Positions 12,236 to 58,050 of a DNA stretch of 59,889 bases are shown here, piece after piece. How positions within the stretch are numbered: the stretch's first letter is position 1; each line of letters opens with the position of its first letter. Made by a program: the position numbers and the translations under genes. The notes below the pieces were generated by a model, which did no database searches, was not told where the DNA came from, and saw nothing but the letters and a program-made list of their open reading frames with translations. This stretch comes from an uncultured Candidatus Bathyarchaeia archaeon (lineage in GTDB: Archaea > Thermoproteota > Bathyarchaeia > 40CM-2-53-6). The stretch is taken from positions 1 to 59,889 of the forward strand of contig CAZJVZ010000001.1 of assembly GCA_964549795.1 (NCBI GenBank), given 5' to 3'.

Positions 12236-12358
12236 ATCGGGCTTCCTACCAGCTCCTTCGAGCACTCAAGCTAATGATCTTAACCTTAACAAGCGTAGAC
12301 GCACATCTCTAACAGTCAGAGTGCCCATCTGATCCTCGTCGGTCAGGTCGGATCCCAA

Positions 12359-13729: not shown

Positions 13730-13730
13730 C

Positions 13731-14321
13731 ATGATATCGTTAGTCATCCTAGCAGCGGGCAAATCAACAAGAATGAGAGAGAACAAGCTGCTTCTGAAGC
13801 TCGATGGCGAGACCCTGATCCAGCACGTCGTAAAGACCGCAAAGAAGTCCAACGCCGACGAGGTCATCGTCGTGCTCGGACACGAAACTGAGAAGGTCAG
13901 GGAGCAACTCGTGAGGCTCGACTGCAGGCTAGTTGTCAATGAGAGTTACGTGAAAGGCCAGAGTGAAAGCGTCAAAGTGGGGTTGACTGTTGTCGCGAGC
14001 AACGCAGAAGCCGTGATGATTCTTCCTGCCGACGTTGCACTTGTGGACGAACAATCCATCAACAGCGTCATAGACGAGTACAGGAAGTCCCACAGCCCCA
14101 TCGTGATAGCTTCGCACAAACATCAGAGTGGGCACCCAATTCTCTTGGACAGAGCGCTCTTCCAAGAAACCTCCCGAATTGATGAGAATACGTTCGGGCT
14201 GAAAGCAGTAATCAATCATCATCGGTCGGAAGTCAAGTATGTCGAAGTTGGCACTGAGAACGTTCTAATCGACATCGACACTCGGGAAGAATTCGACAGA
14301 TACTTCCGCGCGCTAACTTAA
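13731..14321 (+). CDS. mocA: MobA/MocA-like nucleotidyltransferase (molybdenum cofactor cytidylyltransferase-like)
   Basis: 196 aa. N-terminal LAAGKSTRM...NKLLL signature. The ATG sits 1 nt after the upstream TAA. Lies next to xdhC. Confidence 0.75.
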   Translation: MISLVILAAGKSTRMRENKLLLKLDGETLIQHVVKTAKKSNADEVIVVLGHETEKVREQLVRLDCRLVVNESYVKGQSESVKVGLTVVASNAEAVMILPADVALVDEQSINSVIDEYRKSHSPIVIASHKHQSGHPILLDRALFQETSRIDENTFGLKAVINHHRSEVKYVEVGTENVLIDIDTREEFDRYFRALT

Positions 14322-14331
14322 TCTCATCGCA

Positions 14332-15213
14332 ATGACTAGCGATCCATGCGCACTGCGTGAACCAATCGATTGGCAGGAAGGGCTCGGGATGCGTGACGTC
14401 CTAGAAAGAATCAACAAACTGGCGAACGAGGGAAAGACTTTCGCTGTCGCTACAATTGTGAGCCATACCGGTTCGGTGCCGAGGCGCGTCGCAAAGATGG
14501 TCATCGAGTCTGACGGAGCCACCGTCGGCACGATTGGCGGCGGATGTGTCGAGAACGAGGTCGCTGCCCAAGCGCTCAAACTTCTCAAGAATGGGGAGAA
14601 AGGTGTTCACGTGAGTAGCTACAACCTCGTCGAGGAAGAGTTCGATGGTGTAGGAATGAACTGCGGCGGGAAGATTGACGTAGCAATAGAGATCATGGAA
14701 CAAACAGTGAAGCTCGTGATAATCGGAAGCGGGCATCTGGCACAAGCGCTGAGTACAATGGCAAAGATGCTCGACTTCGAGATCGCTGTCGTGGATCCGA
14801 TGGCCAAGAAGGAGAGCTTCCCCGAAGCCGCGCAGGTCGTGAGCGAGTTTGTTGAAAAGGGACTTCCGAAGATCAATGTCGATCAATCAAGCTACGTCGT
14901 GATACTTACTAGGCACAAGGATGACATCCCTGCACTCAAGAGTTCACTCAAGACAAATGCGGCATACATTGGAATGATAGCGAGCCGAAGACGCGCCGCG
15001 CTTGTCTTCGACCAACTGTTGAAAGAGGGTTTCAACAAGGACCAGCTTCGACGAGTTTACTCTCCCGTTGGTCTTGACATAGGCGCCGAGACACCTGAAG
15101 AAATCGCAATGAGCATCCTTGGTGAGATAGTCAAGCTCAGAAGACTCGGGCAGGAGCACGAAGCGGCCTCCAAGAAGCTCCAGTTCCGAGGAGCCAAGAC
15201 GGCCGAGGAATAA
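14332..15213 (+). CDS. xdhC: XdhC/CoxI-family molybdenum hydroxylase maturation factor
   Basis: 293 aa. N-terminal XdhC_CoxI block (FAVATIVSHTGSVPRRVAKMVI...GTIGGGCVE) and C-terminal Rossmann block (KLVIIGSGHLAQAL...VVDP). Confidence 0.85.
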   Translation: MTSDPCALREPIDWQEGLGMRDVLERINKLANEGKTFAVATIVSHTGSVPRRVAKMVIESDGATVGTIGGGCVENEVAAQALKLLKNGEKGVHVSSYNLVEEEFDGVGMNCGGKIDVAIEIMEQTVKLVIIGSGHLAQALSTMAKMLDFEIAVVDPMAKKESFPEAAQVVSEFVEKGLPKINVDQSSYVVILTRHKDDIPALKSSLKTNAAYIGMIASRRRAALVFDQLLKEGFNKDQLRRVYSPVGLDIGAETPEEIAMSILGEIVKLRRLGQEHEAASKKLQFRGAKTAEE

Positions 15214-15770: not shown

Positions 15771-17063
15771 TTACGGCGCAGTCTGCGGCCATCTTCGCCG
15801 TCGAGGCAGCAACACGACCAATGACGTCGAGAGTCCGGATACTATGGCAAGCGTTAGGAAGATCGTGGGCAAGAGCGAGAGATTGTTTCCAACCATCAAC
15901 CCGACCACGACAGGTCCAATGGAATTGCCGCCTAGTACTCCGATGCCCCACACGATCGAGTTCGACAACGACAGGAAATCCGTTGGCACCGAGTCAGCCA
16001 CAGCCGAGAGGAACACAGGGTAGCTACTGTAAGTGAAGAAACCGAAGAATGCGAGACAGGTCACAGACACAACCGGGTTCGAGAGCGTCATCAGATAGAG
16101 AATTATCGTCAGGCTCTGTCCGAGCGTATTGACTGCAACGGACCCTACTCTGTGGAGATCTGAGAGTCGACCGAAGATGATTTGTCCGGGCACACCTAGC
16201 ACGATCGCAATCATCATGATCACGCCGACGCCGAAATCGAACGAGTACTGTTGGACTTGCACGATGAATACTGATAGGAAGCTCACGACGCCCTGGCCGA
16301 ACGTGCCTCTGATAATTGCGATTGTCGTGAGTACAAGAATGTTGATTCTGGCCGACCGACCCATTGAAGTTTTCTTCGCCGGGCCACCGAGTCCTTCCGC
16401 TTTCTTATCTTCAAATGCTGTAGAATGATTCTTTGCCGAGTTCTCGCGGCGGTTTCGGTTGTTTCCAATTGGGAAGAGCCCTATCAAAGCTACAGGGATC
16501 AGCCCCAACAATCCAAGGACGATGACTCCATATGGCAAGTTGAGGGCAGCGATCAGAACCACAACGAGGGTCGGGTAGAGTGCTCGTCCTAGGCTTCCCA
16601 TTGCACCATTGAGTCCCAGTGCAATGCCCGTTCTAGAGGATGGGTAGGTTTGACTGAGGATCGTTCCGCCTATTGGATGGCACACACTGGAACCCAAGCC
16701 CCCAATGGCCGCGGACAGTACCAGCGCAGGGTACAGATCCAAAGGCAGCCAGGCGCGCACGTTGCCTGTGGTGACTGCCCAACCCGTTCCCATAACACCG
16801 GCGGCCATCAAGACAAGCCCGATCACTATGAGAGCGCTGTTACGCTTGAGCCGGTCCGACAGATGACCCACAACAGGGCTTCCCATGACTGACGTGATGT
16901 TCCACATGGCAGCAACGACGCCAAGTTCGGGCGGGGCTAGCCCGAATAGCGAGAGCAACAAGGGAAAGATGGACAGTGGCACCATCGAGACACCGTCGTT
17001 GACGAAGTGGGTTAGCGAAGTGAGAATCAGCGCTCGCTTCTGAGCAGGTGTATCATAGAGCAT
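15771..17063 (-). CDS. MFS transporter
   Basis: 430 aa, about 12 hydrophobic segments, central basic loop. Starts 12 nt after the upstream orphan ORF. Confidence 0.8.
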   Translation of the reverse strand: MLYDTPAQKRALILTSLTHFVNDGVSMVPLSIFPLLLSLFGLAPPELGVVAAMWNITSVMGSPVVGHLSDRLKRNSALIVIGLVLMAAGVMGTGWAVTTGNVRAWLPLDLYPALVLSAAIGGLGSSVCHPIGGTILSQTYPSSRTGIALGLNGAMGSLGRALYPTLVVVLIAALNLPYGVIVLGLLGLIPVALIGLFPIGNNRNRRENSAKNHSTAFEDKKAEGLGGPAKKTSMGRSARINILVLTTIAIIRGTFGQGVVSFLSVFIVQVQQYSFDFGVGVIMMIAIVLGVPGQIIFGRLSDLHRVGSVAVNTLGQSLTIILYLMTLSNPVVSVTCLAFFGFFTYSSYPVFLSAVADSVPTDFLSLSNSIVWGIGVLGGNSIGPVVVGLMVGNNLSLLPTIFLTLAIVSGLSTSLVVLLPRRRRWPQTAP

Positions 17064-17075
17064 GCTATGTTCACC

Positions 17076-17642
17076 CTACTTAGATTCGTTGAAGCCGATT
17101 AGGACCGTGCCCAAGTCGGGATTGTCAGGATCCCATCCTGCCTTCCTCGAGAACTCAGAATGCACCGGAATCGTGATCGTGACAGAGACAACATCCCTCA
17201 CGCCTGGAACCTCCTCAAGCTCAGGAAATGGCAACGCCTTGTAGGTGAGTCTGAGTGGCTTTCCCTTTGCCTCAACCAGTTTGTCGCGATACAGAACCAG
17301 ACTCTTCCCAAGAAAGAGCGCTCTGGAGTCATTCGACAGTTCTTCAAGCTGGCAAGCTTGCCAGATCTCCTCGCCCACGACGCGATCGCCGTCGCAGATG
17401 ACTATGATTGGCCCTGGGGGATGACGGAGCTGCGAGGAGTGGGAGATGATCACGACGCGCTGGCGACCAAGAATGTCCTCTATTCCGGCGTTGATTAGCT
17501 CCAATCCTGGTAGCCCGAGGCGACGATTCGCATCTGTCTCAATCTGTCTTATGGACTCGCGGTCCTCGTCAGGCAGGACCCAGCAACCCACCACTCCAGG
17601 AGTGCTGACTAGCCTCTTGACCGCGGACTCTACGATGTCCAT
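17076..17642 (-). CDS. Hypothetical protein (orphan, 188 aa)
   Basis: Protein-like composition. Tightly packed between the MtrH-like gene (22-nt gap) and the MFS gene (12-nt gap). No motif I recognise. Confidence 0.5.
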   Translation of the reverse strand: MDIVESAVKRLVSTPGVVGCWVLPDEDRESIRQIETDANRRLGLPGLELINAGIEDILGRQRVVIISHSSQLRHPPGPIIVICDGDRVVGEEIWQACQLEELSNDSRALFLGKSLVLYRDKLVEAKGKPLRLTYKALPFPELEEVPGVRDVVSVTITIPVHSEFSRKAGWDPDNPDLGTVLIGFNESK

Positions 17643-17664
17643 GGAATCGTCTTCTCGGTCTGCG

Positions 17665-18570
17665 TTAGCCTATCCTGTAACGTGGATGCGTCTTCGGAAC
17701 TTGGATCTTCTTCTCAATCGGGATCTGACTGTATGCGGTGTCAACCATTACCACTGCAGGGAAGACCACGTTCGCATCGTTGATTGGACCATATAGTACA
17801 AAATCGGCACAGACTGCCGCGCTTACAGCACTCACGGAGGCAAGGCATGGTTTGACGGCTTGTTCTCCCATCTTCGTCTTCAATCCCCTCCAGAGGGCAA
17901 CCGCATTATGCGCACCGCAGCCCACCGGGAAACCAGTCTCGTTCTTGAGCTCGAACATGGCTCGAAGAGCTGAACCAAGCGTCGGGAGGTCAAGGACGCA
18001 TGTGTCAATGAGTACCTTTTCGATTCCACACTCTTGTCTCCTATCCAACAGTTCTTTGATGCAGCTGATTCGGCCTGCGCTGCTGAAATCCTTCATGTTG
18101 TAGGCGAGGAAGACGGCGCTCTTGACGCCGGAGGCTTTGACTGCATTCAGTTCGTCTGGTTTGGTGCTTGGGTTGATCGAGTTGTAGACGACGCGATCGA
18201 GGAATCCATGCTCTTTCGCGTATGCGAGGCCAGCTATTCTCATCTCCGCTGAGGGGCTGTCGATCATGATGGGTGCCTTCGTGTGATCTGCTACAAACTC
18301 GAGATGTCTTTGCATCGCAGGAAGGCTTGCCCCTACGACATCGATCATTGCAGGGTTGCCGGTTCGGTCGGACATCTCGTCCTGGGTCTTGATGAGCTGC
18401 TCAGCAGCGTCCTCATCAAAGGTGCCCACATTCTCATCTTTGACTATTCTGTGACCATGATAGAAGAGTGTTCCAACCAATACGACGGGGCGTTCTCCTG
18501 GAGCGCCTCCTATGCTGACGCCTCCGATCTGGAAGATCTTCTGTTCAGCCTTGAGATTCCACAATCCCAT
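17665..18570 (-). CDS. MtrH-family (tetrahydromethanopterin S-methyltransferase subunit H-like) methyltransferase
   Basis: 301 aa. N-terminus QKIFQIGGVSIGGAPGERPVVLVGTLFY and PIMIDSPS, VVYNSIN blocks typical of MtrH/pterin-binding methyltransferases. Confidence 0.8.
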   Translation of the reverse strand: MGLWNLKAEQKIFQIGGVSIGGAPGERPVVLVGTLFYHGHRIVKDENVGTFDEDAAEQLIKTQDEMSDRTGNPAMIDVVGASLPAMQRHLEFVADHTKAPIMIDSPSAEMRIAGLAYAKEHGFLDRVVYNSINPSTKPDELNAVKASGVKSAVFLAYNMKDFSSAGRISCIKELLDRRQECGIEKVLIDTCVLDLPTLGSALRAMFELKNETGFPVGCGAHNAVALWRGLKTKMGEQAVKPCLASVSAVSAAVCADFVLYGPINDANVVFPAVVMVDTAYSQIPIEKKIQVPKTHPRYRIG

Positions 18571-18652: not shown

Positions 18653-20971
18653 TCAAGGTCGCCCTTTCTTGGCTGCGAAGAGAACCCGTTCGGCAGTGAG
18701 CGGTAGCTCAAAGACTCTTGACCCGGTCGCATGCGCAATTGCATTGGCAAGCGCAGCCGCCGGCAAATCCACAGGGGGTTCTCCCATCGCCTTTGCGCCG
18801 AATGGACCTACTGCACCCGGATACTCTACAATGATCGTTTGAATCTCAGGAATGTCAAGAGATGTTGGAATGTAGTAGTCACCGAGTGTGGGATTGGCGA
18901 CAATCCCGTCCACATGAATCAACTGCTCAGTTAGGCCATATCCGAGTGCTTGGATCGTTCCTCCCTCAATCTGGCCTTCAACGGAAAGTGGGTTGATCGC
19001 GCGTCCCGCATCGTAGGCTGCCGTGATCTTGAGCGGATTGACAATTCCGAGCTCTGTGTCGACCTGTATCTCGGCGACGACGGCGCCGTATGTGTACTGC
19101 AGATAGGTGGTTCCTTGGCTGTTCTCGTTTTCGAACTCGCACTTTGGTGCACTGTAGAAGCCTGTCTCGTTGAGGCTCACGTTCTTCTTGTAGCACTCTT
19201 CGACGGCGTTCTGGAAAGTGATCGTGCGTCGTGGATGATGCGGGTGATGTATGATTCCATTCTTGATGCTCAGGTTCGAGTGGTCACATTGAAGAAGTTC
19301 ACTCGCAACATTGAGGATCTTCTCCCTCACCTTCAGAGCCGCAAGCTGTGCAGCCCTTCCACCTATCACGATGACACGTGATGCGACTGTCGGCCCAGTC
19401 TCACGGCATGACGCCGTGTCTGGCCTATCAAGCTCGAATAGATCGATTGGAAGTCCGAGCGTCTCGGCGGCTATCTGAGCAAGCCCTGAGACTGCCCCGG
19501 TCCCGTATTCAGTGAGCGCGGTTCTTAGAACAACCCTCGCGTCAGGCTTGACGAGCAGGTGGACGTATGCGTAGTCGTTTCCTTCTGGTCCGAGGCTGTT
19601 ACCGTGGTACATCAGGGCTATGCCGATTCCCCGTCGGAATACGCCTTGGTCACGACCGAACTCCGCTCGTTTCGCATACCAATCTGATGCCTCTATCGCT
19701 CGCTTGGTGCATTCCTCGAGTCCACATGCGTCGTCCACAATCTGGCTCGTAGCAGTGAGTGTTCCCGGTCTCAGCATGTTCTTGAGCCTGAGATCGAGTG
19801 GGTCCACGTCCAGCTTCTTGGCGAGTTCGTCCATTTGGCATTCGGCTGCGAAGTGAACCTGAGGGCTTCCGAATCCTCTGAATGAGCCGGCCATCGTGTT
19901 GTTCGTGTACATACAGTACGCGTCGGTCTTCACGTGCGGGATCACATAAGGTCCGGTCGCGTGAAAACATGCGCGGATGATGACTAGGGGTCCGAGCGAT
20001 GCGTAGGCTCCCGTGTCCGAGACAACCAATGCCTCCGATGCGATCAGGCGTCCGTCATTCATTGCTCCCGTTTTCAGCGTAATGACGAAAGGATGACGTT
20101 TCGTGCGGGCTATCATGGATTCCTGTCGAGTGTAGGCGAGGATTGCTGGTTTCCCCATCTTCTGCGCGACCAAAGCGGAAAGAGCGCATGTGTCAACTGG
20201 CATTTCATCTGACTTTGGTCCGAAGGCTCCACCGGTGGTTGCTTGGATCACCCTGACCTTGTCGGGGCTAACGCCCAAAACCTTGGCAACACCGGTCTGA
20301 ACGTAGTAAGGCGTTTGCATCGAACCGACACAGGTGACTGTTCCATCTCGCTCGACCCAAGCCATCCCAACCTCCGGCTCCATAGGGACCGGATCTTGGA
20401 ACTGCGTCTTGTACGTGTTCTCAATTATCACCTCGGCCTGCCGAAAGCCTTCCTTCACATCGCCCTTCCTGACTTTGAGATACTTGGCAACATTTCCGGT
20501 ATCGTGAACGCGAATGGAATCTGGCTTCATTGCCTCAACGGGGGAGAACACAGAGGGGAGAGACTCGTATTCCACTGCGACTCTGTCTGCAGCGTCTTCT
20601 GCTACCTGTGGGTCTTGGGCTGCGACTATTGCTATTGCCTCGCCCTGACATCTGACCTTGCCATTCGCTAGAAGAGGTCGGTCCGGTAGTAGTGCAAATG
20701 CTTCGTTTAGTCCTGGGATGTCTCGCGCAGTGAGGACGACTGATACGCCAAGCATCCGCTTCGCTGGTTCTGTGTCGATTCTCTTGATCAACGCATGAGC
20801 AACAGTGGATCTGACAACCTTCACGCTCAGTGCGTCCTTAGGCACGAGGTCTGATGTGTAGAGCGGGACCCCAAGCACTTTGTCCAGCGCATCAAGCCGC
20901 TGTACGCTCTTGCCGACGACTACGAAGCTGTCCGCTTCGCGAAGCTTCTGAACAAGTTCGGCCTTCGTCAA
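18653..20971 (-). CDS. Xanthine dehydrogenase-family molybdopterin-binding large subunit (set 1)
   Basis: The ORF extends to 21151 but overlaps the FeS gene. The likely start is TTG at 20971 within GCTTGA (overlapping the FeS stop), preceded by GGTGGGGGTGAG. Motifs GGAFGPK, SFRGFGSPQ, AKAMGEPP. The N-terminus aligns with the set 2 large subunit. Confidence 0.85.
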   Translation of the reverse strand: MTKAELVQKLREADSFVVVGKSVQRLDALDKVLGVPLYTSDLVPKDALSVKVVRSTVAHALIKRIDTEPAKRMLGVSVVLTARDIPGLNEAFALLPDRPLLANGKVRCQGEAIAIVAAQDPQVAEDAADRVAVEYESLPSVFSPVEAMKPDSIRVHDTGNVAKYLKVRKGDVKEGFRQAEVIIENTYKTQFQDPVPMEPEVGMAWVERDGTVTCVGSMQTPYYVQTGVAKVLGVSPDKVRVIQATTGGAFGPKSDEMPVDTCALSALVAQKMGKPAILAYTRQESMIARTKRHPFVITLKTGAMNDGRLIASEALVVSDTGAYASLGPLVIIRACFHATGPYVIPHVKTDAYCMYTNNTMAGSFRGFGSPQVHFAAECQMDELAKKLDVDPLDLRLKNMLRPGTLTATSQIVDDACGLEECTKRAIEASDWYAKRAEFGRDQGVFRRGIGIALMYHGNSLGPEGNDYAYVHLLVKPDARVVLRTALTEYGTGAVSGLAQIAAETLGLPIDLFELDRPDTASCRETGPTVASRVIVIGGRAAQLAALKVREKILNVASELLQCDHSNLSIKNGIIHHPHHPRRTITFQNAVEECYKKNVSLNETGFYSAPKCEFENENSQGTTYLQYTYGAVVAEIQVDTELGIVNPLKITAAYDAGRAINPLSVEGQIEGGTIQALGYGLTEQLIHVDGIVANPTLGDYYIPTSLDIPEIQTIIVEYPGAVGPFGAKAMGEPPVDLPAAALANAIAHATGSRVFELPLTAERVLFAAKKGRP

Positions 20972-21450
20972 GCTCTCACCCCCACCATCTCTTTGGCTGC
21001 TTCCTGAATGGCCGTGATGAGCTTGTAGTATCCCGTACAGCGGCAGAGGACTCCGCTGATCGATTCCTTGATTTCCTGTTTCGAAGGAGTTGGGTTGTGA
21101 TCGAGCAGGTTCTTGCCCGCCAAAACCATTGCGGGAATGCAGAAACCGCACTGGGCTGCGTTGTACTTCATCATGGCCTTCTGGACCGGGTGGGGTTTCT
21201 CGCGAGTGCCCACGCCCTCAATTGTTGTGATTCTCTTGTCTCTAGCTTGGACAGCTAGCACCAAGCATGAGTTCACAAGCTGGCCATCCATGATTACTGT
21301 ACATGCACCGCAGTCTCCAGTTCCACAGCCCTCTTTCACTCCTTTCAGGTTCAATCGGTCTCTGAGGACATCGAGCAATCTATCTGTGGAATCGACGATG
21401 AGTGCGTGGTCTTTGCCGTTCACGTTGAGTCTTACGGTGTGTTTAGCCAT
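20968..21450 (-). CDS. [2Fe-2S]-binding small subunit (set 1)
   Basis: 160 aa. CGTGDCGACTV and CGFCIPAM...CRCTGY motifs. Confidence 0.9.
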   Translation of the reverse strand: MAKHTVRLNVNGKDHALIVDSTDRLLDVLRDRLNLKGVKEGCGTGDCGACTVIMDGQLVNSCLVLAVQARDKRITTIEGVGTREKPHPVQKAMMKYNAAQCGFCIPAMVLAGKNLLDHNPTPSKQEIKESISGVLCRCTGYYKLITAIQEAAKEMVGVRA

Positions 21451-21456
21451 TTGCCC

Positions 21457-22332
21457 TCACTTCTTGGCGATCCCCACTTGGCACTCAGTAAGGGCACGGC
21501 GGAACAGCACCTTCGCAGCCTCACATCTGTACTGGGCCGAGGCTCGAAAATCAGACGTCAGAGCCAACTCGTCTCCGAGCACCTCGGCTGCTTTCCGAAT
21601 CGTCTGCTCGTTCAACTTCTGACCGAGGAGTTCCTTCTCTAGGCTCTCTGATCTTTCAGGAATCTTGCGCTTAAGTCGATTGAGCGCTATCCGTGCAGAT
21701 TTGATACTGGAACCGGTCTCGTCTGTTTCGAGCACGGCTGCAACGGAAACAAGCGCGATGATCAGAGTATTTCGTATTCCGAGCTTCTGGAACGAGCACG
21801 CGCTCCTAGGAGAAAGCTTAGAGAATGAGACCTCGGCAAGAATCTCGCCAGGATGCAAGGCAGTTCTCCGCTTCGAAACAATGAAGTCTTTCAGAGCCAT
21901 CTCTCGCACTCCGCCCCTCCGAATTGCCTTCACATTCGCATCGAGCGCAAGGAAGACCGGTATCAAATCCTCCGACGAGGAAGCCGCACAGATGTTTCCG
22001 CCGACGGTGGCGGCATTTCTGATATTGGGTGATCCGAACTTCGCTGTGACATCATCGAGGAGCCTGCCCCAGGCGGGAGGATCCGTTTGCTTTCTTAGAT
22101 CAGCGATTGTTGTCAGTGCACCGATGTGAATCTTGTCGCGATCGCCTCTGATGTATCTGAGTTCAGACAGTCCTGAAAGATCCACGAGATTCCTGATGGA
22201 CACTTGTTTCCTCCTTATACGCGGGAGGAGATCTGTTGAGCCCGCTATCGGAAGCGTGTCAGTAGGATTCTCTTCGAGATAGCGGAGTGCATCGTCAAAG
22301 CTCAGGGGAACGTAGACGTTGAATCCAGGCAT
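21457..22332 (-). CDS. FAD-binding medium subunit (set 1)
   Basis: 291 aa. CO dehydrogenase flavoprotein/XDH FAD-domain pattern (AGSTDLLP, ATVGGNI, SDFRASAQYR). Confidence 0.85.
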   Translation of the reverse strand: MPGFNVYVPLSFDDALRYLEENPTDTLPIAGSTDLLPRIRRKQVSIRNLVDLSGLSELRYIRGDRDKIHIGALTTIADLRKQTDPPAWGRLLDDVTAKFGSPNIRNAATVGGNICAASSSEDLIPVFLALDANVKAIRRGGVREMALKDFIVSKRRTALHPGEILAEVSFSKLSPRSACSFQKLGIRNTLIIALVSVAAVLETDETGSSIKSARIALNRLKRKIPERSESLEKELLGQKLNEQTIRKAAEVLGDELALTSDFRASAQYRCEAAKVLFRRALTECQVGIAKK

Positions 22333-22335
22333 GCG

Positions 22336-22611
22336 TCATCCCCCGCTCACCGGCGGAATGACCAATACGATGTCGCCGTCTTTGAGCGGAACTGACATAT
22401 CAACTGGTTTCTGCAGCACATTGTTGATGTAAACGAAAGCGTACTCTCGAACGCGGCCTTGCTCATCAAATAGCACATTCTTTGTCACGCCGCCGTACCT
22501 TCCAGCCAAGGTTCGCAAGAGCTCGCCTAGGTTGTCTACTGTCAACGCGATCTCGCCACTTCCTGCGGCGGTTCTAAGCTCGTGAAAGAGCCTGACCTTC
22601 ACTGAAGCCAC
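22336..22611 (-). CDS. MoaD/ThiS-family ubiquitin-like beta-grasp protein (Ubl-1)
   Basis: 91 aa, GTG start overlapping the TAG stop of the upstream large subunit (TAGTG). MoaD-like pattern with C-terminus DGDIVLVIPPVSGG-stop. Ends 3 nt before the FAD subunit start. Confidence 0.7.
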   Translation of the reverse strand: MASVKVRLFHELRTAAGSGEIALTVDNLGELLRTLAGRYGGVTKNVLFDEQGRVREYAFVYINNVLQKPVDMSVPLKDGDIVLVIPPVSGG

Positions 22612-24887
22612 TATGATTTCAGCTCGTTCTTCTGCATGCGCAAGGCGTTGAACAGGCGTTCAGGCCTGATGGGTATCATGTATGACCGGACCCCAGTCGC
22701 GTCGTAGATAGCATTCGTGATCGCGGCGGCAACTGGGACTATGGCGATTTCGCCTACCCCCTTTGCTCCGAAGGGGCCCGTCTTCTCGAACGTCTCCACA
22801 GGTGCGATTTCGATGTCAGGTGCATCCATTATTGTTGGGATTAGGTAGGTTGTGAAGTTCGGCGTCTTCAGATATCCGTCCTCGATGATTGCTTCCTCGG
22901 TCAGTGCGTATCCTAGGCCCTGGACGACTGCCCCTTCGCATTGTCCTCTGAAGTTCTGCGGGTTGATCACCTTGCCCGAGTCTGGGCTTACGAGGAATCG
23001 GAGCACCTTGGTCTTCCCGGTCAGCGTGTCGACCTCAACGAGCGCTACCGCTGTTGCGTACATGAATGCCCAGTGTGGAATCTCTACGCTTCCCTCGAGC
23101 GGGCGCTCGAATCTCGGGACCTCAAATCCAGCCTCAACGTGCAGTTGACATCCCGCGCCCCACGTGCGTTGGCCAAGTAGGCTGTACGACACCCTTCTTT
23201 TCACATCGTCCTTTGCCACAACTGCGCCTTCTCGGCATTCGACCTTATCCTCAGGTTCTCTGAGCATCTGAGCCCCATGCGAGACAAGGAGCGCCCGCAT
23301 CTTCTCCGCTGCCTTGATGATCGCGTTCCCGCCAACGTAGACGGACCTAGACGCAGATGATGATCCAGTATCAGGTGTGAGTGCGGTGTCCGCAGACGCC
23401 ACGTGCACATCCTTGAATCTACAATGCAGCTCTTCGGCGGCAATCTGGGCGTAGGCTGTGACATTGCCTTGGCCCATGTCTGGGCAGCCTACGCCAATTG
23501 TGAATGTGCCGTCCTCGTTGAGTGCAATCGAGGCCGCCCCGAAGTCTGGAAGCGCGCCGAATGTGAAGCCCTTCAGCGCACAGGCGATTCCGACTCCTCT
23601 CTTGCACCACGGCTCAGGCGATCGAGCCTTATGGGCTTCTCTCTGAAGCCAGAGATCTGACTTGGACGCGACCTCCAGAGTTTCATGGATTCCTATGCTT
23701 CCAGGAATCCTGACGCCGAATGTGCTGATGTCTCCTTCTCGGATGACGTTTCGTTTCCTGATTTCCATTCTGTCTATGCGGAGTTTCTCAGCGATGATGT
23801 CCATTTGTGATTCCATGGCGAAGATTGACTGTGGGGCGCCGAATCCGCGGAATGCACCTGAGAAGCCGTTGTTAGTGTATACGCAGTACGCGTCGATGTC
23901 AACGTTGGGAATATTGTATGGTCCGCAGGAGGTTTCCATGCTGACATCTAGGATTGTGCCGCCGAGAGACGCGTAGGCGCCCGTGTCTGACACTATTCTG
24001 ACCTTGTTTGCGAGCAATCTGCCGTCTGCGCCGGCACCGGTTCGGATCGTGATAGTCACGGGATGACGTTTCAGCCCAGAAATTCCGGATTCCTCTCGAG
24101 AAAGCACCATTTTGACGGGACGTTTCGTCTTCAAAGCCAACAATGCAAGATGAATCTGGACGGTGACCTCATCCTTGCCGCCGAATGCCCCACCAACTAT
24201 GGACGAGACTACTCTGATCTTCTCGCGTGGAATCCCGAGCGCTCTTGCGATCTGAAGTTGGTCGCGGTACGGCGACTGCCCTCCAACGTAGAGGACAACG
24301 TTCCCGTTCTCATCTAGTAGCCCAACGCCGGCCTCAATCTCAAGAAACATGTGCATCTGACGGCCGGTCCGATACGTGTTCTCAACCACGACCGCGCATT
24401 TCTCAAAGGCGGATTCCGCGTCTCCGAGTCGGATGTGTCCGTGTCTGTAGATGTTCCCACTTTCATGGACTCGCGGCGACTCGGGTTTCATCGCTTCAAT
24501 TGGATCCGAAACCACCGGCAGCGATTCATACTCCACCTTGATCAAATCGAGTGCGCGTTCTGCCGTGTCAGGGTCTTCCGCTGCCACGAGCGCGACTGCA
24601 TCACCCTCATAGCGAACCTTATCCTCGCAGAGGACCGGTTGATCGGGAGTCACGATTCCGTAACGATTTGTCCCTTGCACATCTTTGTGTGTAAGAACTG
24701 CGACGACACCCGGCAAGGATTGTGCACGTGAGGTATCGATGTGTCTGATGAGGGCATGAGGGCGGCCTGCTCTCAGAACTCTTCCATACAACATGTCTTT
24801 GAAGTGAAGATCTGAGTAGAATCTCGCACGACCGGTTGCCCTGTCGAGCGCGTCAGGTTTTGTGACCTGCTTTCCAACCCAACGCAA
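22611..24887 (-). CDS. Xanthine dehydrogenase-family molybdopterin-binding large subunit (set 2)
   Basis: 758 aa. a/b-hammerhead N-terminus. Motifs GGAFGGKDE, AFRGFGAPQ, AKGVGEIA. Confidence 0.9.
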   Translation of the reverse strand: MRWVGKQVTKPDALDRATGRARFYSDLHFKDMLYGRVLRAGRPHALIRHIDTSRAQSLPGVVAVLTHKDVQGTNRYGIVTPDQPVLCEDKVRYEGDAVALVAAEDPDTAERALDLIKVEYESLPVVSDPIEAMKPESPRVHESGNIYRHGHIRLGDAESAFEKCAVVVENTYRTGRQMHMFLEIEAGVGLLDENGNVVLYVGGQSPYRDQLQIARALGIPREKIRVVSSIVGGAFGGKDEVTVQIHLALLALKTKRPVKMVLSREESGISGLKRHPVTITIRTGAGADGRLLANKVRIVSDTGAYASLGGTILDVSMETSCGPYNIPNVDIDAYCVYTNNGFSGAFRGFGAPQSIFAMESQMDIIAEKLRIDRMEIRKRNVIREGDISTFGVRIPGSIGIHETLEVASKSDLWLQREAHKARSPEPWCKRGVGIACALKGFTFGALPDFGAASIALNEDGTFTIGVGCPDMGQGNVTAYAQIAAEELHCRFKDVHVASADTALTPDTGSSSASRSVYVGGNAIIKAAEKMRALLVSHGAQMLREPEDKVECREGAVVAKDDVKRRVSYSLLGQRTWGAGCQLHVEAGFEVPRFERPLEGSVEIPHWAFMYATAVALVEVDTLTGKTKVLRFLVSPDSGKVINPQNFRGQCEGAVVQGLGYALTEEAIIEDGYLKTPNFTTYLIPTIMDAPDIEIAPVETFEKTGPFGAKGVGEIAIVPVAAAITNAIYDATGVRSYMIPIRPERLFNALRMQKNELKS

Positions 24888-24923
24888 CTCACCTTGGACT
24901 GAAGTGGATCCGGCTATTTTCCA

Positions 24924-25166
24924 TCACCGGCCTCCTGTTACTGGGGGAAAGACGAGGAGTTCGTCGCCGTCTGTGAGTGCGATGTGCTTGTCGAGACGTA
25001 CTCCGTTTCGGACAACGTAGAGGTACACCTTGTCAAGTATCGGGAGGCTGTCGATTGCATCTTGAGTGGTCGCGCCTTCACGTAGGTCCAACTCAAGCTC
25101 GTCCTTCTCGAGAGCTTGAGGAGAGTACGCATAGAGCTTGACTCGGACCCTCACGGCTTCTCCCAC
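24924..25166 (-). CDS. MoaD/ThiS-family ubiquitin-like beta-grasp protein (Ubl-2)
   Basis: 80 aa from ATG, or 76 aa from the GTG of a GTGA stop/start overlap with the FAD subunit. C-terminus DGDELLVFPPVTGG-R-stop. Confidence 0.65.
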   Translation of the reverse strand: MGEAVRVRVKLYAYSPQALEKDELELDLREGATTQDAIDSLPILDKVYLYVVRNGVRLDKHIALTDGDELLVFPPVTGGR

Positions 25167-26038
25167 TCCGTCTTGCGCCTGATCAGCGCATGCATGGCCT
25201 TGTAGAGAAGTGCAGGTATCATCGCTCGTCTGTAGTCAGCTGATGCTCGCACGTCACTGATTGGCGATGATTCCTTGTCTGCGATCTGACCGGCCTCCCA
25301 GATGATCTCCTCTGTGAGTGTTCGATTCCGAAGGAATTCCTCACATTTCTTTGCCCTCATGACAGTAGGCGCGACTGCACCGAAGGCAACTCTGACGTCA
25401 GAGAAACCGGCTCCGTCGGGCCTCCACCGACCCCAGACTGCAACATTGACGAGAGATATGAAATGCGCTTCCCTGAGGCCGAGCTTCACGAACGTCGCAT
25501 CGGAAGGCCTGTTGATTGCTTCGAATGAGATCTCCGTGATGAGTTCATCCTGCCTCAGCTCCGTCTCTCGATATCCAAGGAAGAACCTCTCAACCGGTAT
25601 GTCGCGCTTGCCCCCACGATTCTGCACGGTGACAGTGGCATCCAGAACGTAGAACGGCGGGATCGCGTCTCCTGCAGGCGAACTGTTTGCCAAGTTGCCA
25701 CCTATTGTTGCTCGATTCTGGATCTGCGGTGTCCCGATTGTCCTACAAGCGTCAACGAGCATCCTGCAAGAACTCTTCAGCACTGAGGACTCAATGAGGT
25801 CTGAATATGTGCTCAACGCACCGATGCGAATCGTGGGCCCTTCTCTGAGAACATATCGAAGCTCACGTATGCTGGAAAGATCAAGCAGTTCTCTGGTTTG
25901 AAGCGATCCTTCTTTCAGCTGGATGATCGCGTCGGTGCCTCCCGCGATCGGTCTAACCCTTTCTGGCCGGTCGTGTAGTGTGCTCAGAGCTTCCTTGAGG
26001 CTCCTTGAGCGCACGACTGTGATGTCGCCGAGTCTCAT
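25151..26038 (-). CDS. FAD-binding medium subunit (set 2)
   Basis: 295 aa. AGGTDAIIQ, ATIGGNLA, SDVRASADYR. Confidence 0.85.
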   Translation of the reverse strand: MRLGDITVVRSRSLKEALSTLHDRPERVRPIAGGTDAIIQLKEGSLQTRELLDLSSIRELRYVLREGPTIRIGALSTYSDLIESSVLKSSCRMLVDACRTIGTPQIQNRATIGGNLANSSPAGDAIPPFYVLDATVTVQNRGGKRDIPVERFFLGYRETELRQDELITEISFEAINRPSDATFVKLGLREAHFISLVNVAVWGRWRPDGAGFSDVRVAFGAVAPTVMRAKKCEEFLRNRTLTEEIIWEAGQIADKESSPISDVRASADYRRAMIPALLYKAMHALIRRKTEWEKP

Positions 26039-26050
26039 GCTTGATCTATC

Positions 26051-26515
26051 CTAAGGCTTGCGTGCTGCCTGCTGGACTGCTCGAATGATGGTCGTGTAAC
26101 CTGTGCATCTGCATAGGTTACCCGCGAGCGCCGTCTTGATGTCCTCAACACTTGGGTTGGGATTGCGGGTCAGAAGTGCCTCAGTTGAGACAATGAGCCC
26201 CGGAGTGCAGTGACCGCACTGCACAGCTCCACTTTCCACAAACGCCTGGTGTACACGATCAGGGAGACCATCCTTCATGAAACCCCCAGATGTAACAATC
26301 TCTGCCTCTTCAACTTGCGATATCAATACTAAGCATGAAAGCACAGGACGCCCGTTCATCAGTACAGTGCAAGCGCCGCACTCTCCCTTCCCGCAGTCCT
26401 CCTTCGGACCCGTCACATTCAATTTGCCTCGCAAGACTTCGAGGAGAGTGTGGGCTGGAGGAGCAGATACGGAGACTTCTTGTCCGTTCAGTCTGAACGA
26501 GAATCGTTTCTCCAA
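26051..26515 (-). CDS. [2Fe-2S]-binding small subunit (set 2)
   Basis: 154 aa, TTG start. CGKGECGACTV and CGHCTPGL...CRCTGY. Confidence 0.9.
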   Translation of the reverse strand: MEKRFSFRLNGQEVSVSAPPAHTLLEVLRGKLNVTGPKEDCGKGECGACTVLMNGRPVLSCLVLISQVEEAEIVTSGGFMKDGLPDRVHQAFVESGAVQCGHCTPGLIVSTEALLTRNPNPSVEDIKTALAGNLCRCTGYTTIIRAVQQAARKP

Positions 26516-28830: not shown

Positions 28831-28938
28831 AGAGAATCCCTCTTAGGCGAGTCACAAGAGCGTTCGTCTTTCTTGGAAGAAGTCTTTTTCTATAGCGCAT
28901 GGGAACTTCGGCGACTGCAAGCGTTTGAGGTCCAAGCG

Positions 28939-29115
28939 ATGGGTGACATGAGCAAATACGAGTGCGGCGTTTGCGGCTACATCTACGACCCTGCCGTAGG
29001 CGACCCGGACAACGATGTGGTGCCCATGACCCCCTTTGAGAAGCTCCCCGATGAGTGGAAATGTCCCCTCTGCGGAGCTGACAAATCCGTATTCGTGAAA
29101 GTGGAGAACACTTAG
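28939..29115 (+). CDS. Rubredoxin
   Basis: The ORF opens at 28873, but ATG 28939 follows [17 protein letters not shown]...[10 protein letters not shown], two CxxC pairs. Confidence 0.9.
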
Positions 29116-30143: not shown

Positions 30144-32663
30144 CTAGTATGCTCTTGAGAGTTCGGTGCGTGTGCTTCCTTGTCGGTCGCGATATGTGAT
30201 TTGCCAGCGCGGTGCCCACGCGAGCGCCACCGTATCAACCTCGACATCGCTTCTGTTCGGCCTCACAGACACCTCCTCGAACTTCTGCGTAGCTTCATCC
30301 CAACGTGCTGTGATGGCAGCCGTCTCCTGCTGAAGCTCGCCTTGTAGCTGCTCGACGTCTTTCTGCAGAGTATCGACACTCTCTGTTGCTTCTTGCGCTC
30401 GCATCTCAGCCGCAGATTTCTGGCGGTATTTGCTGAGCGTAGTTGAAGCGGCGCGGTACGATCGCCTGCCCAGGAACATACCTAGCACCGATTCTCCAGC
30501 AGACACCATGACTTCTCGTTTGCGAGCCTCTGCATCTGCCTGCTTCATGGCGACGGTTGATTGGGCGCGTCGGAGTCGATCTTGGAGTGTCCTCAGACGT
30601 GTCCCGTAGCGGTCATTGAGCGCGTCTACCTCCGCGTCTCGTTTCTCACGTGCAGACTGGCTCAACCGCATGGCGAAATCACGTTCGTTCTCCTTCGGCT
30701 GAGAATACGCCTTCAAAGCTGAGCTGTACAGTAGCTTCAGGCTGCTGTTGCGGTAGAGATGATCGACGAGATCGTTCTTCAGTGCATCGAGCTCTCGCGG
30801 CTCGTTGATAGACTCGGGCAACGCACCAAAGCGAGCGTCAGGCTCGGAGCGGTTCAGAAAATCACGTGATGTCAGATTGAGTGATTCCGCCTCCTCCCAA
30901 CGTGGAGTCCCACCGCCGCTCGGCGGTTGTGCGAGCAGTTCGAAGTCCTTTTGCTCATCCAAGCTGAGGCGCCGATCCACGAAGTGAATACGACCCATTC
31001 CCAACACAGCGGGCACATAGAGCAGACCACTGCTCTGCACCTCGACCGGCCCGCCTTCCTGTTTCTCAATACTCTGTAACGTCTCGGCTGAACCTCGGCG
31101 TGTTGGGAGGTAGACCTGTTGAATCTCAGATGGGAGGACCGGCGGTGACGCCAAGGGTTCACGCGTCACGATTGTGGGGGCAGGCGTGATTGGGGTGGGC
31201 ATGGTGGGAGGTACCCCCGTTCCAGCCGAGGGCTCGGCGACTGATTGGTCAGGCTGCCGGCCACTCATCAGAACATGGATTTGATCCTTGGTCAGTGGGC
31301 CACGCAGGTAGCTCATCGCCCATCTCGACTGAAAAGTGACTGGTGCGTCCTCGTGCACATTGTGTAGCAAGAATACTCGGTTGGCCAACGATGAGATGAT
31401 GCGGCTCAGTGCCTCCCGGTTCATCGTCTTGCCGGCTACCGAGGACGCGCTTTCGAGTCCATCTAGCAGTCGCATCTTGTCTCGTTCAGTTTGGAGTCGG
31501 CCGATGAGCCATGTGCCTGCGTTCGTGAGTCCCTTGTAGTCCAAGTCAACAGGGTTCTGCGTAGTCAACACGACACCCAATCCGAAAGCTCTGGCCTGCT
31601 TCAACAGCGTCAGCATAGGTTGCTTGCTCGGAGGATTAGCCACGGGCGGGAAGTATCCGAAGATCTCATCCATGTAGAGAAGAGCGCGCAGACTCGTCGT
31701 GCCTGATTGGGAGCGCATCCAAATAATCACTTGGTTCAGAAGCATCGTGACGAAGAACATCCGTTCGCGGTCGTTCAGGTGAGCGATGTAGAAGACTGAA
31801 TGGCGAGTTTTGCCGTTCGGAGTGCTGAGAAAGCTGGCTGCATCAAGAGGCTGTCCTTTGAGCCAGTTCTGGAAGCCGGGTGCTGCGATGATGTTGTTCA
31901 GGCTGATTGCCAGCTGAAAGCGGTCCTTCTGGGGATAGAACGTGTCGACAGGAAGAACGCCGAGTTGGCTGATGGGAGGATTCTGGATCGCCATGATCAG
32001 CTTCGGGAGGTCTAGGTCTTCGCCTTGGCGCCAGTAGTGTTGAAACAGATTCGCCAGTAGTATGTGCTCTCGTGATCGCACTGGATCCGCATCGATGCCG
32101 ACAAGCCCCAGCAGCGCGCTGACCGTCCCTTGGATGCGTTCAAGGAGCCACTCGGAGTCGGTCTCCCAGCTGGTGGTCGGCGCCGCAAAGGACTGCAGAA
32201 TCGACACCGGAAGGCCTGAATCGCTGCCAGGAGTGTAGATGACGAAGTCCGTTGAGTCACGGAGCATCTTGATCCGGGCTCGGTCTTGGCCCCACTCGGC
32301 GAGCCCTTTGCCCCACATCTCTGCTTGCTGTGCAGAGAACTGATCTTCAGTCAAGCCTTTGCGTCGAGCGTCGTCGACATTGATCCAAGGCTGGAAATCC
32401 TGGGGACGCAGCTCAGGGAAGGTGAGCAGAAGGTTCGTCATGTCACCTTTCGGGTCAATCATGATGGCTGGCACGTGGTCAATGGCAGCTTCCTCAAGAA
32501 GGCAAAGGCACAGACCCGTCTTGCCGCTGCCGGTCATGCCAACGCAGACGGCATGAGTTGTAAGGTCTCGAGCATCATACATCACCAATTCGCTGAGTAG
32601 CTTGCCCTTCTTCAGGTCGTACTCCTTTCCGAGATAAAATGCGCCGAGCTTCTCGAAGTCCAT
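30144..32663 (-). CDS. HerA/FtsK-like (DUF87/DUF853-type) P-loop ATPase with long C-terminal coiled-coil extension
   Basis: 839 aa. Walker A GMTGSGKTG, IMIDPKGD, Walker B LLYMDEIFG, TQNPVDLDYK..IGRLQTERD. Pro-rich linker, then ~350 aa rich in R/E/Q heptad-like sequence. Confidence 0.75.
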   Translation of the reverse strand: MDFEKLGAFYLGKEYDLKKGKLLSELVMYDARDLTTHAVCVGMTGSGKTGLCLCLLEEAAIDHVPAIMIDPKGDMTNLLLTFPELRPQDFQPWINVDDARRKGLTEDQFSAQQAEMWGKGLAEWGQDRARIKMLRDSTDFVIYTPGSDSGLPVSILQSFAAPTTSWETDSEWLLERIQGTVSALLGLVGIDADPVRSREHILLANLFQHYWRQGEDLDLPKLIMAIQNPPISQLGVLPVDTFYPQKDRFQLAISLNNIIAAPGFQNWLKGQPLDAASFLSTPNGKTRHSVFYIAHLNDRERMFFVTMLLNQVIIWMRSQSGTTSLRALLYMDEIFGYFPPVANPPSKQPMLTLLKQARAFGLGVVLTTQNPVDLDYKGLTNAGTWLIGRLQTERDKMRLLDGLESASSVAGKTMNREALSRIISSLANRVFLLHNVHEDAPVTFQSRWAMSYLRGPLTKDQIHVLMSGRQPDQSVAEPSAGTGVPPTMPTPITPAPTIVTREPLASPPVLPSEIQQVYLPTRRGSAETLQSIEKQEGGPVEVQSSGLLYVPAVLGMGRIHFVDRRLSLDEQKDFELLAQPPSGGGTPRWEEAESLNLTSRDFLNRSEPDARFGALPESINEPRELDALKNDLVDHLYRNSSLKLLYSSALKAYSQPKENERDFAMRLSQSAREKRDAEVDALNDRYGTRLRTLQDRLRRAQSTVAMKQADAEARKREVMVSAGESVLGMFLGRRSYRAASTTLSKYRQKSAAEMRAQEATESVDTLQKDVEQLQGELQQETAAITARWDEATQKFEEVSVRPNRSDVEVDTVALAWAPRWQITYRDRQGSTRTELSRAY

Positions 32664-33308: not shown

Positions 33309-33463
33309 GGTCCGTCAATGCACGTGTCATCGATCATCTATTAGATGCATACGACGCAGCTCGACGTGTTCGGCGCTCCGGGGGGCAATCCCATTGCTTT
33401 AGGTATCAGTGACGCCTCATCATCACACTTGGACGGTAACTTGGTGCTCTAGTGGGGGCGGGC

Positions 33464-57952: not shown

Positions 57953-58050
57953 TCCCGCACCGCACATCGCCTTTCATAGACTTGTGCAAGTCAGCGCCTT
58001 AGGTGTCTACTTTAATATTGGAACCTCCGAAATAGGGAAGGTAATCATCG

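Follow-up and report, generated by a model that had tools for sequence, protein, structure and literature searches.

MoaD-type ubiquitin-like genes interleaved with the structural genes of paired molybdenum hydroxylases in Bathyarchaeia: candidates for enzyme-dedicated sulfur carriers

Introduction

Genes for MoaD-like proteins in the operons of pterin-containing enzymes are a described theme for the tungsten aldehyde oxidoreductases (AORs) (PMC1779556, PMC2948915, PMC6365974, PMC11323500). Here, we describe two genes for small ubiquitin-like proteins (Ubls) of the MoaD type, Ubl-1 and Ubl-2, which are interleaved with the structural genes of two xanthine dehydrogenase (XDH)-family enzymes in a contig of an uncultured Candidatus Bathyarchaeia archaeon (CAZJVZ010000001.1); the whole stretch of DNA analyzed, 59,889 nucleotides (nt), is referred to as the window. 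The subunits of the two enzymes are abbreviated S (small, iron-sulfur (FeS)), M (medium, flavin adenine dinucleotide (FAD)) and L (large, molybdenum (Mo)), followed by the number of the set.

MoaD genes have been found strictly adjacent to tungsten AOR genes and sometimes fused with them (PMC1779556, PMC2948915). The aorABCDE operon of Aromatoleum aromaticum closes with the MoaD-like genes aorD and aorE, neither product of which was found in the purified enzyme (PMC6365974). When the UblC gene (tk1065) next to the AOR gene of T. kodakarensis was deleted, AOR activity was reduced and formaldehyde oxidoreductase (FOR) activity was lost (PMC11323500). Processing after the C-terminal glycines has been described as well: MoaX of M. 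tuberculosis, a MoaD-MoaE fusion, is active only once it has been cleaved after Gly82 (PMC4326299), and MoaD-MoaE and SAMP1-MoaE linkages are cut by JAMM proteases (PMC8832034, PMC4443979).

The locus described here resembles the AOR systems, including the "tungsten cofactor" neighbourhood of Iyer et al. 2006, in that MoaD-family genes are located within or strictly beside the operon of a pterin enzyme, apart from the main operon for molybdenum cofactor (Moco) biosynthesis. Two MoaD-like genes in one operon are also found in Aromatoleum, occasional fusion to the cofactor-binding subunit is also found in Azoarcus, and a role in cofactor maturation is proposed in both cases, with partial genetic support there, in T. 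kodakarensis. The client enzyme differs, being a Mo-hydroxylase of the XDH family with molybdopterin cytosine dinucleotide (MCD), FeS and FAD subunits and not a tungsten AOR. In addition, the Ubl genes are interleaved among the structural genes here, whereas those of the AORs are appended; the fusion is N-terminal with a buried Gly-Gly (GG), whereas the Azoarcus fusion is C-terminal with a free GG; residues following GG are the rule for Ubl-2; and MoeB and MoaE, which are frequent in AOR neighbourhoods, are absent near this operon. A first-pass annotation of the window had stated that such genes are not part of the textbook architecture, which holds for the XDH family, but the idea is less novel than had been assumed, since tungsten AOR operons carry MoaD-like genes. 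The theme of the enzyme-linked MoaD is here extended from the tungsten AORs to the Mo-hydroxylase family. No paper on MoaD-type genes in XDH-family operons or fused to a Mo subunit was found in the literature, a weak negative given the limited coverage, and within the same limited coverage nothing was found on MoaD in connection with XdhC, sulfido or molybdenum hydroxylases, nor on Bathyarchaeia in connection with 4-hydroxybenzoyl-CoA reductase.

It is only partly understood how XDH-family enzymes of prokaryotes, notably those of archaea, are supplied with their cofactor and with its terminal sulfur, which is essential for catalysis. The operon physically links MoaD-type carriers to the Mo-binding subunit, by fusion in some lineages, and thereby offers a concrete experimental handle and a testable link between Ubl sulfur carriers and the maturation of archaeal Mo-hydroxylases. 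Soils and sediments harbour Bathyarchaeia in large numbers, so that these enzymes may be relevant to the turnover of purines or other N-heteroaromatic compounds.

Results

Two MoaD-family proteins are encoded between hydroxylase subunit genes

Ubl-1 (91 aa, 22336..22611, minus strand) and Ubl-2 (76 aa, or 80 aa from an alternative GTG at 25166; 24924..25154, minus strand) are MoaD/ThiS-family beta-grasp proteins. Both match the Pfam family ThiS (PF02597) above its gathering score of 22.5 bits, Ubl-1 with 38.8 bits (E 1.4e-9) and Ubl-2 with 32.9 bits (E 1e-7), confirming by profile search what the first-pass annotation had proposed for the two open reading frames (ORFs). The archaeal subfamily model "MoaD family protein" of NCBIfam (TIGR01687, cut-off 49.5 bits) was passed by Ubl-1 with 52.7 bits but not by Ubl-2 with 37.1 bits, and neither protein reached the cut-off of 60 bits for the SAMP1 equivalog NF041918 (41.8 bits for Ubl-1 and 33.0 bits for Ubl-2). 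Public pipelines label the two ORFs "MoaD family protein" or "molybdopterin converting factor small subunit".

Searches of the PDB with a Ubl-1 profile returned the SAMP1 homologue of M. acetivorans first (2e-9), followed by Ta0895, HVO_2177, P. furiosus MoaD and CysO; the best matches of the Ubl-2 profile were P. furiosus MoaD (1VJK) and SAMP1. The AlphaFold2 model of Ubl-1 has a predicted local distance difference test score (pLDDT) of 88.5, and Foldseek places SAMP1 (3PO0 and 2L52, template modelling (TM) score 0.79-0.83), mycobacterial MoaD and CysO at the top of its matches, with TM scores of 0.7-0.83 overall to SAMP1, MoaD, CysO and Urm1. For Ubl-2, the corresponding domain of a naturally fused homologue (fragment P0155) was modelled as beta-beta-alpha-beta-beta with a mean pLDDT of 78-96 per block of ten residues. 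The closest solved structures and sequences to Ubl-1 are thus those of SAMP1 from Haloferax volcanii and its M. acetivorans homologue, archaeal MoaD-type proteins that also end in PPVSGG and have a dual capacity as sulfur carriers and modifiers. Unlike Ubl-1 and Ubl-2, SAMP1 is encoded outside any molybdoenzyme structural operon.

Both proteins carry the MoaD tail DGD..PPV(S/T)GG, as had been noted before; GG as the very end was found for Ubl-1 but not for Ubl-2. Ubl-1 terminates exactly at PPVSGG (...DGDIVLVIPPVSGG-TGA, stop 22338-22336). In Ubl-2 the motif FPPVTGG is followed by one extra residue, R (...DGDELLVFPPVTGG-R-TGA). The tail DGDELLVFPPVTGG is almost identical to the C-terminus of E. 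coli MoaD, DGDEVAFFPPVTGG, and HMMER aligns exactly this tail to 1FM0 chain D. When the profiles of Ubl-1 and Ubl-2 were compared with each other, the alignment was limited to the last 35 C-terminal columns; on this comparison the two belong to different MoaD lineages and do not stem from a recent duplication.

The two genes are part of a tightly packed minus-strand string running from 26515 to 15771, in the order FeS2-FAD2-Ubl2-Mo2-Ubl1-FAD1-FeS1-Mo1, which is followed by genes for an MtrH-family protein, a 188-aa protein and a major facilitator superfamily (MFS) transporter. According to Pfam and NCBIfam, the flanking genes encode two complete FeS/FAD/Mo domain sets of the XDH family. S2, the first gene of the operon (26051..26515), and S1 (20968..21450) each encode the two [2Fe-2S] domains Fer2_2 and Fer2; M2 (25151..26038) and M1 (21457..22332) encode FAD_binding_5 and CO_deh_flav_C; L2 (22611..24887) and L1 (18653..~20971, start inferred from homologues) encode Ald_Xan_dh_C, MoCoBD_1 and MoCoBD_2 and are assigned as the large subunits, L2 binding the MCD cofactor. 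The ATG of L1 overlaps the stop codon of S1. Substrate-specific NCBIfam equivalogs all remained below cut-off for the hydroxylase subunits (for instance pucD with 684.8 versus 783.65 bits), and the pucE/XdhC-type matches of S2 were likewise all under their equivalog cut-offs. In the PDB, L2 matched best the alpha subunit of 4-hydroxybenzoyl-CoA reductase (1RM6, 4e-112) and nicotinate dehydrogenase (3HRD).

Junctions of the Ubl genes overlap and the downstream genes often lack a canonical start codon

The first G of the Ubl-1 start codon GTG (22611-22609) is at the same time the last base of the L2 stop codon TAG (22613-22611), giving the sequence TAGTG, an overlap that is conserved among relatives, and 3 nt (CGC) separate the Ubl-1 stop from the ATG of M1 at 22332, which lies in the same frame. 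The GTG start of Ubl-2 (25154-25152) overlaps the TGA of M2 (25153-25151; GTGA), and 36 nt lie between Ubl-2 and the first canonical start of L2, the TTG at 24887. A comparison of the junctions in 18 distinct loci identified these 36 nt as a spacer of 12 codons (24888..24923, minus strand) in frame with both Ubl-2 and L2. All four junctions read as they did in the first-pass annotation, which had derived translational coupling from them. The two glycine codons also provide the ribosome-binding site for the gene that follows, as GGAGG upstream of L2 and as GGGGGA upstream of M1; the GGAGG, a likely ribosome-binding site, is located within the T-G-G codons (24931-24935) upstream of L2. From these junctions, the Ubl genes are predicted to share a transcript with the genes of the apo-subunits and to be coupled to them in translation.

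M1 opens with ATC in 10 of the 13 distinct junctions of the window's clade, one sense codon past the Ubl-1 stop (L002 (10280-10282), L004, L006, L009, L010, L017, L022 and L026, and in the +1 frame L001 and L005), while M1 starts with ATG in the window (22330-22332), L007 and L013. The approximately 30 codons from the ATC to the first canonical M1 start are conserved, mostly through synonymous changes, which argues that they are translated. In the window, the codon that corresponds to the ATG start of L2 in relatives is ATA (24915-24917), and the first canonical start, TTG (24885-24887), follows 9 codons further on. Since M1 and L2 often lack a canonical start, translation of the downstream subunits is probably dependent on that of the Ubl gene, or else starts at unusual codons. 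Automatic annotation mis-calls these neighbouring genes owing to the ATC or ATA starts: because of the ATC, M1 is shortened by approximately 30-70 residues by gene callers in relatives.

Of the 18 distinct Ubl-2/L2 junctions, 16 keep the two genes in one frame, as do 10 of the 13 Ubl-1/M1 junctions of the window's clade. Selenocysteine insertion or programmed read-through at the stop codons behind the Ubl genes was rejected as a general mechanism: the stop is TGA, TAA or TAG depending on the lineage, several lineages are out of frame following a +1 insertion in the G run, and the shared frame is explained by the conserved spacing "GG-xx-stop-NAG-ATG", in which the GG codons contain the ribosome-binding site.

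The arrangement is conserved in two clades

Homologues of Ubl-1 form more than 120 clusters at 65-100% identity and those of Ubl-2 form 33 clusters. Approximately 30 loci from metagenome-assembled genomes (MAGs) of Bathyarchaeia and from metagenomes keep the arrangement, and so does a second clade that is more divergent. The MAGs with the operon include CAZLHM01, CAVWAQ01, JBAVVE01 and JBEKGZ01. In every sufficiently long locus of the window's clade the order is S2-M2-Ubl2-L2-Ubl1-M1-S1-L1-MtrH-188aa-MFS, usually with XdhC and MocA adjacent. The second clade (L028, L029, L031), whose L2 is 60-63% and whose Ubls are 45-55% identical, has the order S-M-Ubl-L-Ubl-M-(S)-L with XdhC directly after L1. 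The embedding beside XDH genes suspected from the window alone is therefore conserved in relatives, with the same order in every long-enough locus of both clades. In a scan of one genome per GTDB species the Ubl-1 family was present only in seven Bathyarchaeia MAGs, and the names of two of these (SPRUCE, MFD) suggest peat and soil surveys.

In every locus of the two clades L2 is directly flanked by the Ubl genes, with Ubl-2 on its upstream and Ubl-1 on its downstream side. One dedicated Ubl per enzyme, as proposed earlier, was an assumption: both Ubls flank L2, Ubl-2 being tied to L2, and Ubl-1 to L2 upstream and M1 downstream.

No ThiS ORF was found in four bacterial relatives of L2, which comprise a puc-type operon of Neobacillus and three M-S-L operons, two of which adjoin urate-oxidase genes. 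An 84-aa ORF behind the Mo subunit gene of Neobacillus (L030) was considered as a hidden Ubl; by inspection it resembles the N-terminal fragment of a frameshifted XdhC. The Ubl-1 profile was also used to search 1.84 billion representative sequences; no Ubl fused to FAD or Mo subunits was found there, and the matches were ordinary MoaD-like proteins and one ThiS-ThiF fusion.

Ubl-1 and Ubl-2 have diverged about as fast as the FAD subunits, and nucleotide differences in them are 2-4 times more common at the third codon position than at the first and second, so that purifying selection on both ORFs is evident from the alignments. The conserved order, the FAD-like divergence, the excess of third-position differences and the absence from the four bacterial relatives together argue that the embedding is real, selected and lineage-specific.

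GG is invariant, the sequence behind it is not

The features that turned out to be most informative, the fusions, the residues behind GG and the missing start codons, were absent from the first-pass annotation. GG is unchanged in every homologue of Ubl-1 and Ubl-2 of both clades, including the fused forms. The residues beside it vary, with PPVSGG, PAAAGG and PSAAGG in Ubl-1 and PPVTGG, PPVAGG and PPIAGG in Ubl-2, where any residue may follow GG. Among the 33 clusters of free Ubl-2, GG is the end of the protein in 4 and is followed by one residue in 2 and by two residues in 27, and these residues can be of almost any kind (RR, RG, ED, DH, DR, ER, EC, RC, RS, GC, QC, ES). Some lineages have regained a stop right after GG and have kept the old stop two codons further on. 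Behind the GG of Ubl-2 there are thus 0, 1 or 2 residues, or a linker of 3 or 14 aa leading into L2. Ubl-1 ends at GG in 103 of 120 clusters, and 16 of 120 have an extension of 4 or 15 residues, which could be traced, in two loci that were examined, to a +1 insertion within the run of G that encodes GG.

In the window Ubl-2 and L2 are unfused and share one frame with a single TGA between them. In-frame fusion of Ubl-2 to the N-terminus of L2 was found in L002/L003, L010, L021 and the fragments P0154-P0158, where the junctions read ...FPPV(A/T)GG-(E/Q/G)x(D/N)-LRWVGK... with GG retained. The full-length fusion of L002 has 836 aa. L013 is fused as well; here the stop was lost and a linker of 14 residues connects Ubl-2 and L2. 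The same locus has also lost the L2 stop before Ubl-1 (6553 region), so that L2 is extended by 4 codons and its TGA overlaps the Ubl-1 start; both junctions around L2 are relaxed in L013. A homologue search with the first 203 residues of the fusion returned fragments of 356 aa or less. Since the fused lineage is itself diversified (80-88% identity), the fusion is not an assembly artefact.

In the AlphaFold2 model of P0155, GG plus linker is the sole stretch of low confidence (pLDDT <50), which is consistent with an exposed GG linker in the fused form; a Foldseek search with this model gave matches to the L2 part only. The Ubls of the second clade are free-standing and mostly end exactly at GG, with the next genes starting with ATG or GTG in other frames. 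For this reason free Ubls are probably ancestral, and extensions and fusions derived.

Discussion

Ubl-1 and Ubl-2 as sulfur carriers

GG is invariant amid freely varying neighbours and arbitrary downstream sequence, a pattern that is the signature of Ubls using their C-terminal glycine and that implies the removal of everything after it. Free evolution of the sequence behind GG would be expected if it were all removed. We put at about one half the probability that the two Ubls are MoaD-type carriers of sulfur for the maturation of the cofactor, dedicated to these enzymes, synthesized alongside the apo-subunits and processed behind GG. Two different MoaD-family carriers would have been recruited into the structural operon of the paired hydroxylases, serving these enzymes' own cofactor. 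Each Ubl would be released or trimmed after the invariant GG, losing one or two extra residues or, if fused, the whole Mo subunit, and would then be adenylated and thiocarboxylated by a MoeB/UbaA-type activating enzyme (E1) encoded elsewhere. The sulfur would be donated to the cofactor, most likely to the molybdopterin dithiolene through MoaE. Delivery to the terminal Mo=S ligand, handled with XdhC, is less likely; this idea is kept alive by the fusion to the Moco-binding subunit itself and by the presence of two different Ubls. Production of the carrier in fixed proportion to the nascent apo-enzyme and beside it would tie cofactor supply to enzyme induction.

The sulfur-carrier reading is the most economical one because of the precedents and because two late Moco-tailoring genes belong to the same cluster. 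These encode a MocA/MobA-like nucleotidyltransferase, a probable Moco cytidylyltransferase (13731..14321, plus strand; NTP_transf_3, 131 bits, conserved synteny), and an XdhC-type chaperone for Moco insertion and sulfuration that is convergent with the operon (14332..15213, plus strand; XdhC_CoxI and XdhC_C). Among the precedents, MoaX and the MoaD-MoaE protein of Deinococcus, which is cleaved by DRJAMM, likewise have an N-terminal MoaD domain with Gly-Gly kept at the junction, as in the relatives of our locus. Their partner is the large subunit of molybdopterin synthase, whereas here it is the Mo-binding catalytic subunit of the client enzyme, and the cleavage after GG that MoaX requires for activity is here a prediction.

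Several observations weigh against this reading. Both Ubls are far under the cut-off of the moaD equivalog TIGR01682 (25.8 bits for Ubl-1 and 26.9 bits for Ubl-2 versus 66.15). No E1 (ThiF/MoeB), MoaE or JAB/MPN (JAMM) peptidase was found in the 60-kb window or within 8-10 kb in six annotated relatives, and in known Ubl systems with a C-terminal extension the protease is usually encoded adjacently. Molybdopterin supply alone explains neither the retention of two anciently diverged MoaD paralogues nor their interleaving with, and fusion to, structural subunits. Ubl-1, moreover, is coupled to the FAD subunit, a protein that does not bind Moco.

Alternative explanations

The main alternative, possible but rather unlikely, is that the Ubls are non-catalytic stoichiometric subunits, domains or in-cis chaperones of L2 (Ubl-2) and of the FAD subunit/L2 (Ubl-1) without any C-terminal chemistry, comparable to the ubiquitin that aids folding when fused to ribosomal proteins, or to a permanent beta-grasp domain. 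The natural in-frame fusion with a linker of just 3 residues in a diversified lineage would fit such a role, as would the 29 of 33 free Ubl-2 clusters that do not end at GG, the 16 Ubl-1 clusters with 4-15 extra residues and the lack of E1, MoaE and JAMM genes nearby; the TAGTG and GTGA overlaps and the downstream genes without canonical starts favour production at a ratio of 1:1. A passive linker, however, would not need GG, which is invariant amid varying neighbours and in fused forms too. The second clade, which looks ancestral, has free Ubls ending exactly at GG, and the solved XDH-family structures among the PDB matches of L2 contain no such subunit. In the analogous AOR operon, the MoaD-like proteins AorD and AorE were not part of the purified enzyme (PMC6365974). 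Because GG is invariant, we favour C-terminal chemistry, as carrier or modifier, over a purely structural fourth subunit.

It is also conceivable, although we consider it improbable, that the terminal Mo=S ligand of the cofactor derives from the thiocarboxylate sulfur of one Ubl or of both, which would act together with XdhC at or close to the large subunit, in place of the sulfurases of the NifS or ABA3 type that other systems use. MoaD and ThiS are normally fused to the enzyme that uses their sulfur, MoaE or ThiG (PMC1779556), and by this Rosetta-stone logic the partner found here, the Moco-binding subunit, would be the sulfur user. Both large subunits have kept the catalytic glutamate motif, GEPP in L1 and GEIA in L2, which presumably corresponds to Glu1261 of bovine XDH, and are for this reason probably sulfido-dependent hydroxylases. 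XdhC lies within the conserved cluster, and two different Ubls could serve two different sulfur destinations. On the other hand, a sulfido ligand delivered by a Ubl is without known precedent, the fused or adjacent Ubl-2 is found at L2 but not at L1, Ubl-1 is coupled to the FAD subunit, and a possible cysteine desulfurase of the class-V aminotransferase family is encoded 17 kb away, outside the cluster. The sequences offer nothing that separates this role from the ordinary role of MoaD. The aminotransferase in question (Aminotran_5, 455 aa; 41724-43091, minus strand, ~17 kb from the operon) might supply the sulfur for thiocarboxylation of the Ubls or for sulfuration of Moco.

A more far-reaching idea, which we consider doubtful, is that the operon is a prokaryotic counterpart of the ubiquitin-fusion genes: Ubls made as N-terminal fusions or obligatorily coupled cistrons would be cut after Gly-Gly and would then act with XdhC on the nascent apo-enzyme as enzyme-tethered, possibly single-use sulfur donors for the dithiolene, the terminal Mo=S or both. 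C-terminal extra residues or an N-terminal fusion, with GG exposed by proteolysis, are shared with eukaryotic ubiquitin-fusion precursors, QbsE, CysO with Mec+ and the ubiquitin of Caldiarchaeum. The likeness is one of gene architecture only; no dedicated protease is encoded adjacently here, and the Ubls are of the MoaD type and not of the ubiquitin type. Such a mechanism would, if true, represent a Ubl-based way of sulfurating Moco in archaea that was not known before. With their C-terminal extensions and linear fusions, the Ubls described here are further natural instances of archaeal Ubl precursors.

A regulatory conjugation of the Ubls, in which GG would be linked to lysines on hydroxylase subunits or on proteins of Moco synthesis as SAMP1 is to MoaE in Haloferax, is very unlikely. 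GG is invariant, SAMP1 proteins are the best structural and sequence neighbours of Ubl-1 and archaeal MoaD-type Ubls are often bifunctional (PMC4443979, PMC11323500), but both Ubls score below the SAMP1 equivalog cut-off, E1 and JAMM are not encoded nearby, and the conserved position in a Moco-enzyme operon with mocA and xdhC speaks for cofactor maturation.

Neighbouring genes

In the window's clade L1 is always followed by the genes for MtrH, the 188-aa protein and the MFS transporter (15771-18570, minus strand). The MtrH-family methyltransferase (17665..18570) matches Pfam MtrH with 313 bits and NCBIfam NF002142 with 338 bits, above cut-off. The 188-aa protein (17076..17642) has no match in Pfam or NCBIfam and is conserved in L001, L002, L005-L007, L009 and L010. 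The MFS transporter (15771..17063; MFS_1) is, according to synteny, the last conserved gene of the block. The constant presence of this block behind L1 hints at methyl transfer coupled to the Mo-hydroxylases in one pathway, for example for methylated or methoxylated heteroaromatics.

On the plus strand, positions 12359-15213 encode an amidohydrolase followed by the MocA-like nucleotidyltransferase and XdhC. Altogether, three amidohydrolase-family genes and an IMP dehydrogenase gene are present within the window (10865-13729 and 56564-59487), and adenine-deaminase-type genes adjoin the operon in the relatives L028 and L030. These neighbours suggest that the two hydroxylases act on purine-like substrates.

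A scan for promoters and terminators across the operon gave matches at chance level. Further upstream, a small rubredoxin ORF (28873-29115, plus strand) lies antisense to longer mechanical ORFs, and an 839-aa protein (30144-32663, minus strand) has only a weak match to HerA/DUF87 ATPases. In relatives of both clades a gene for a luciferase-like oxidoreductase (Bac_luciferase) is located directly upstream of the operon and divergent from it (L001 4538-5539, L028 5119-6135, L029 3527-4525, L031 5253-6260); the Bac_luciferase gene of the window (33452-34480, plus strand) is found approximately 7 kb from the operon.

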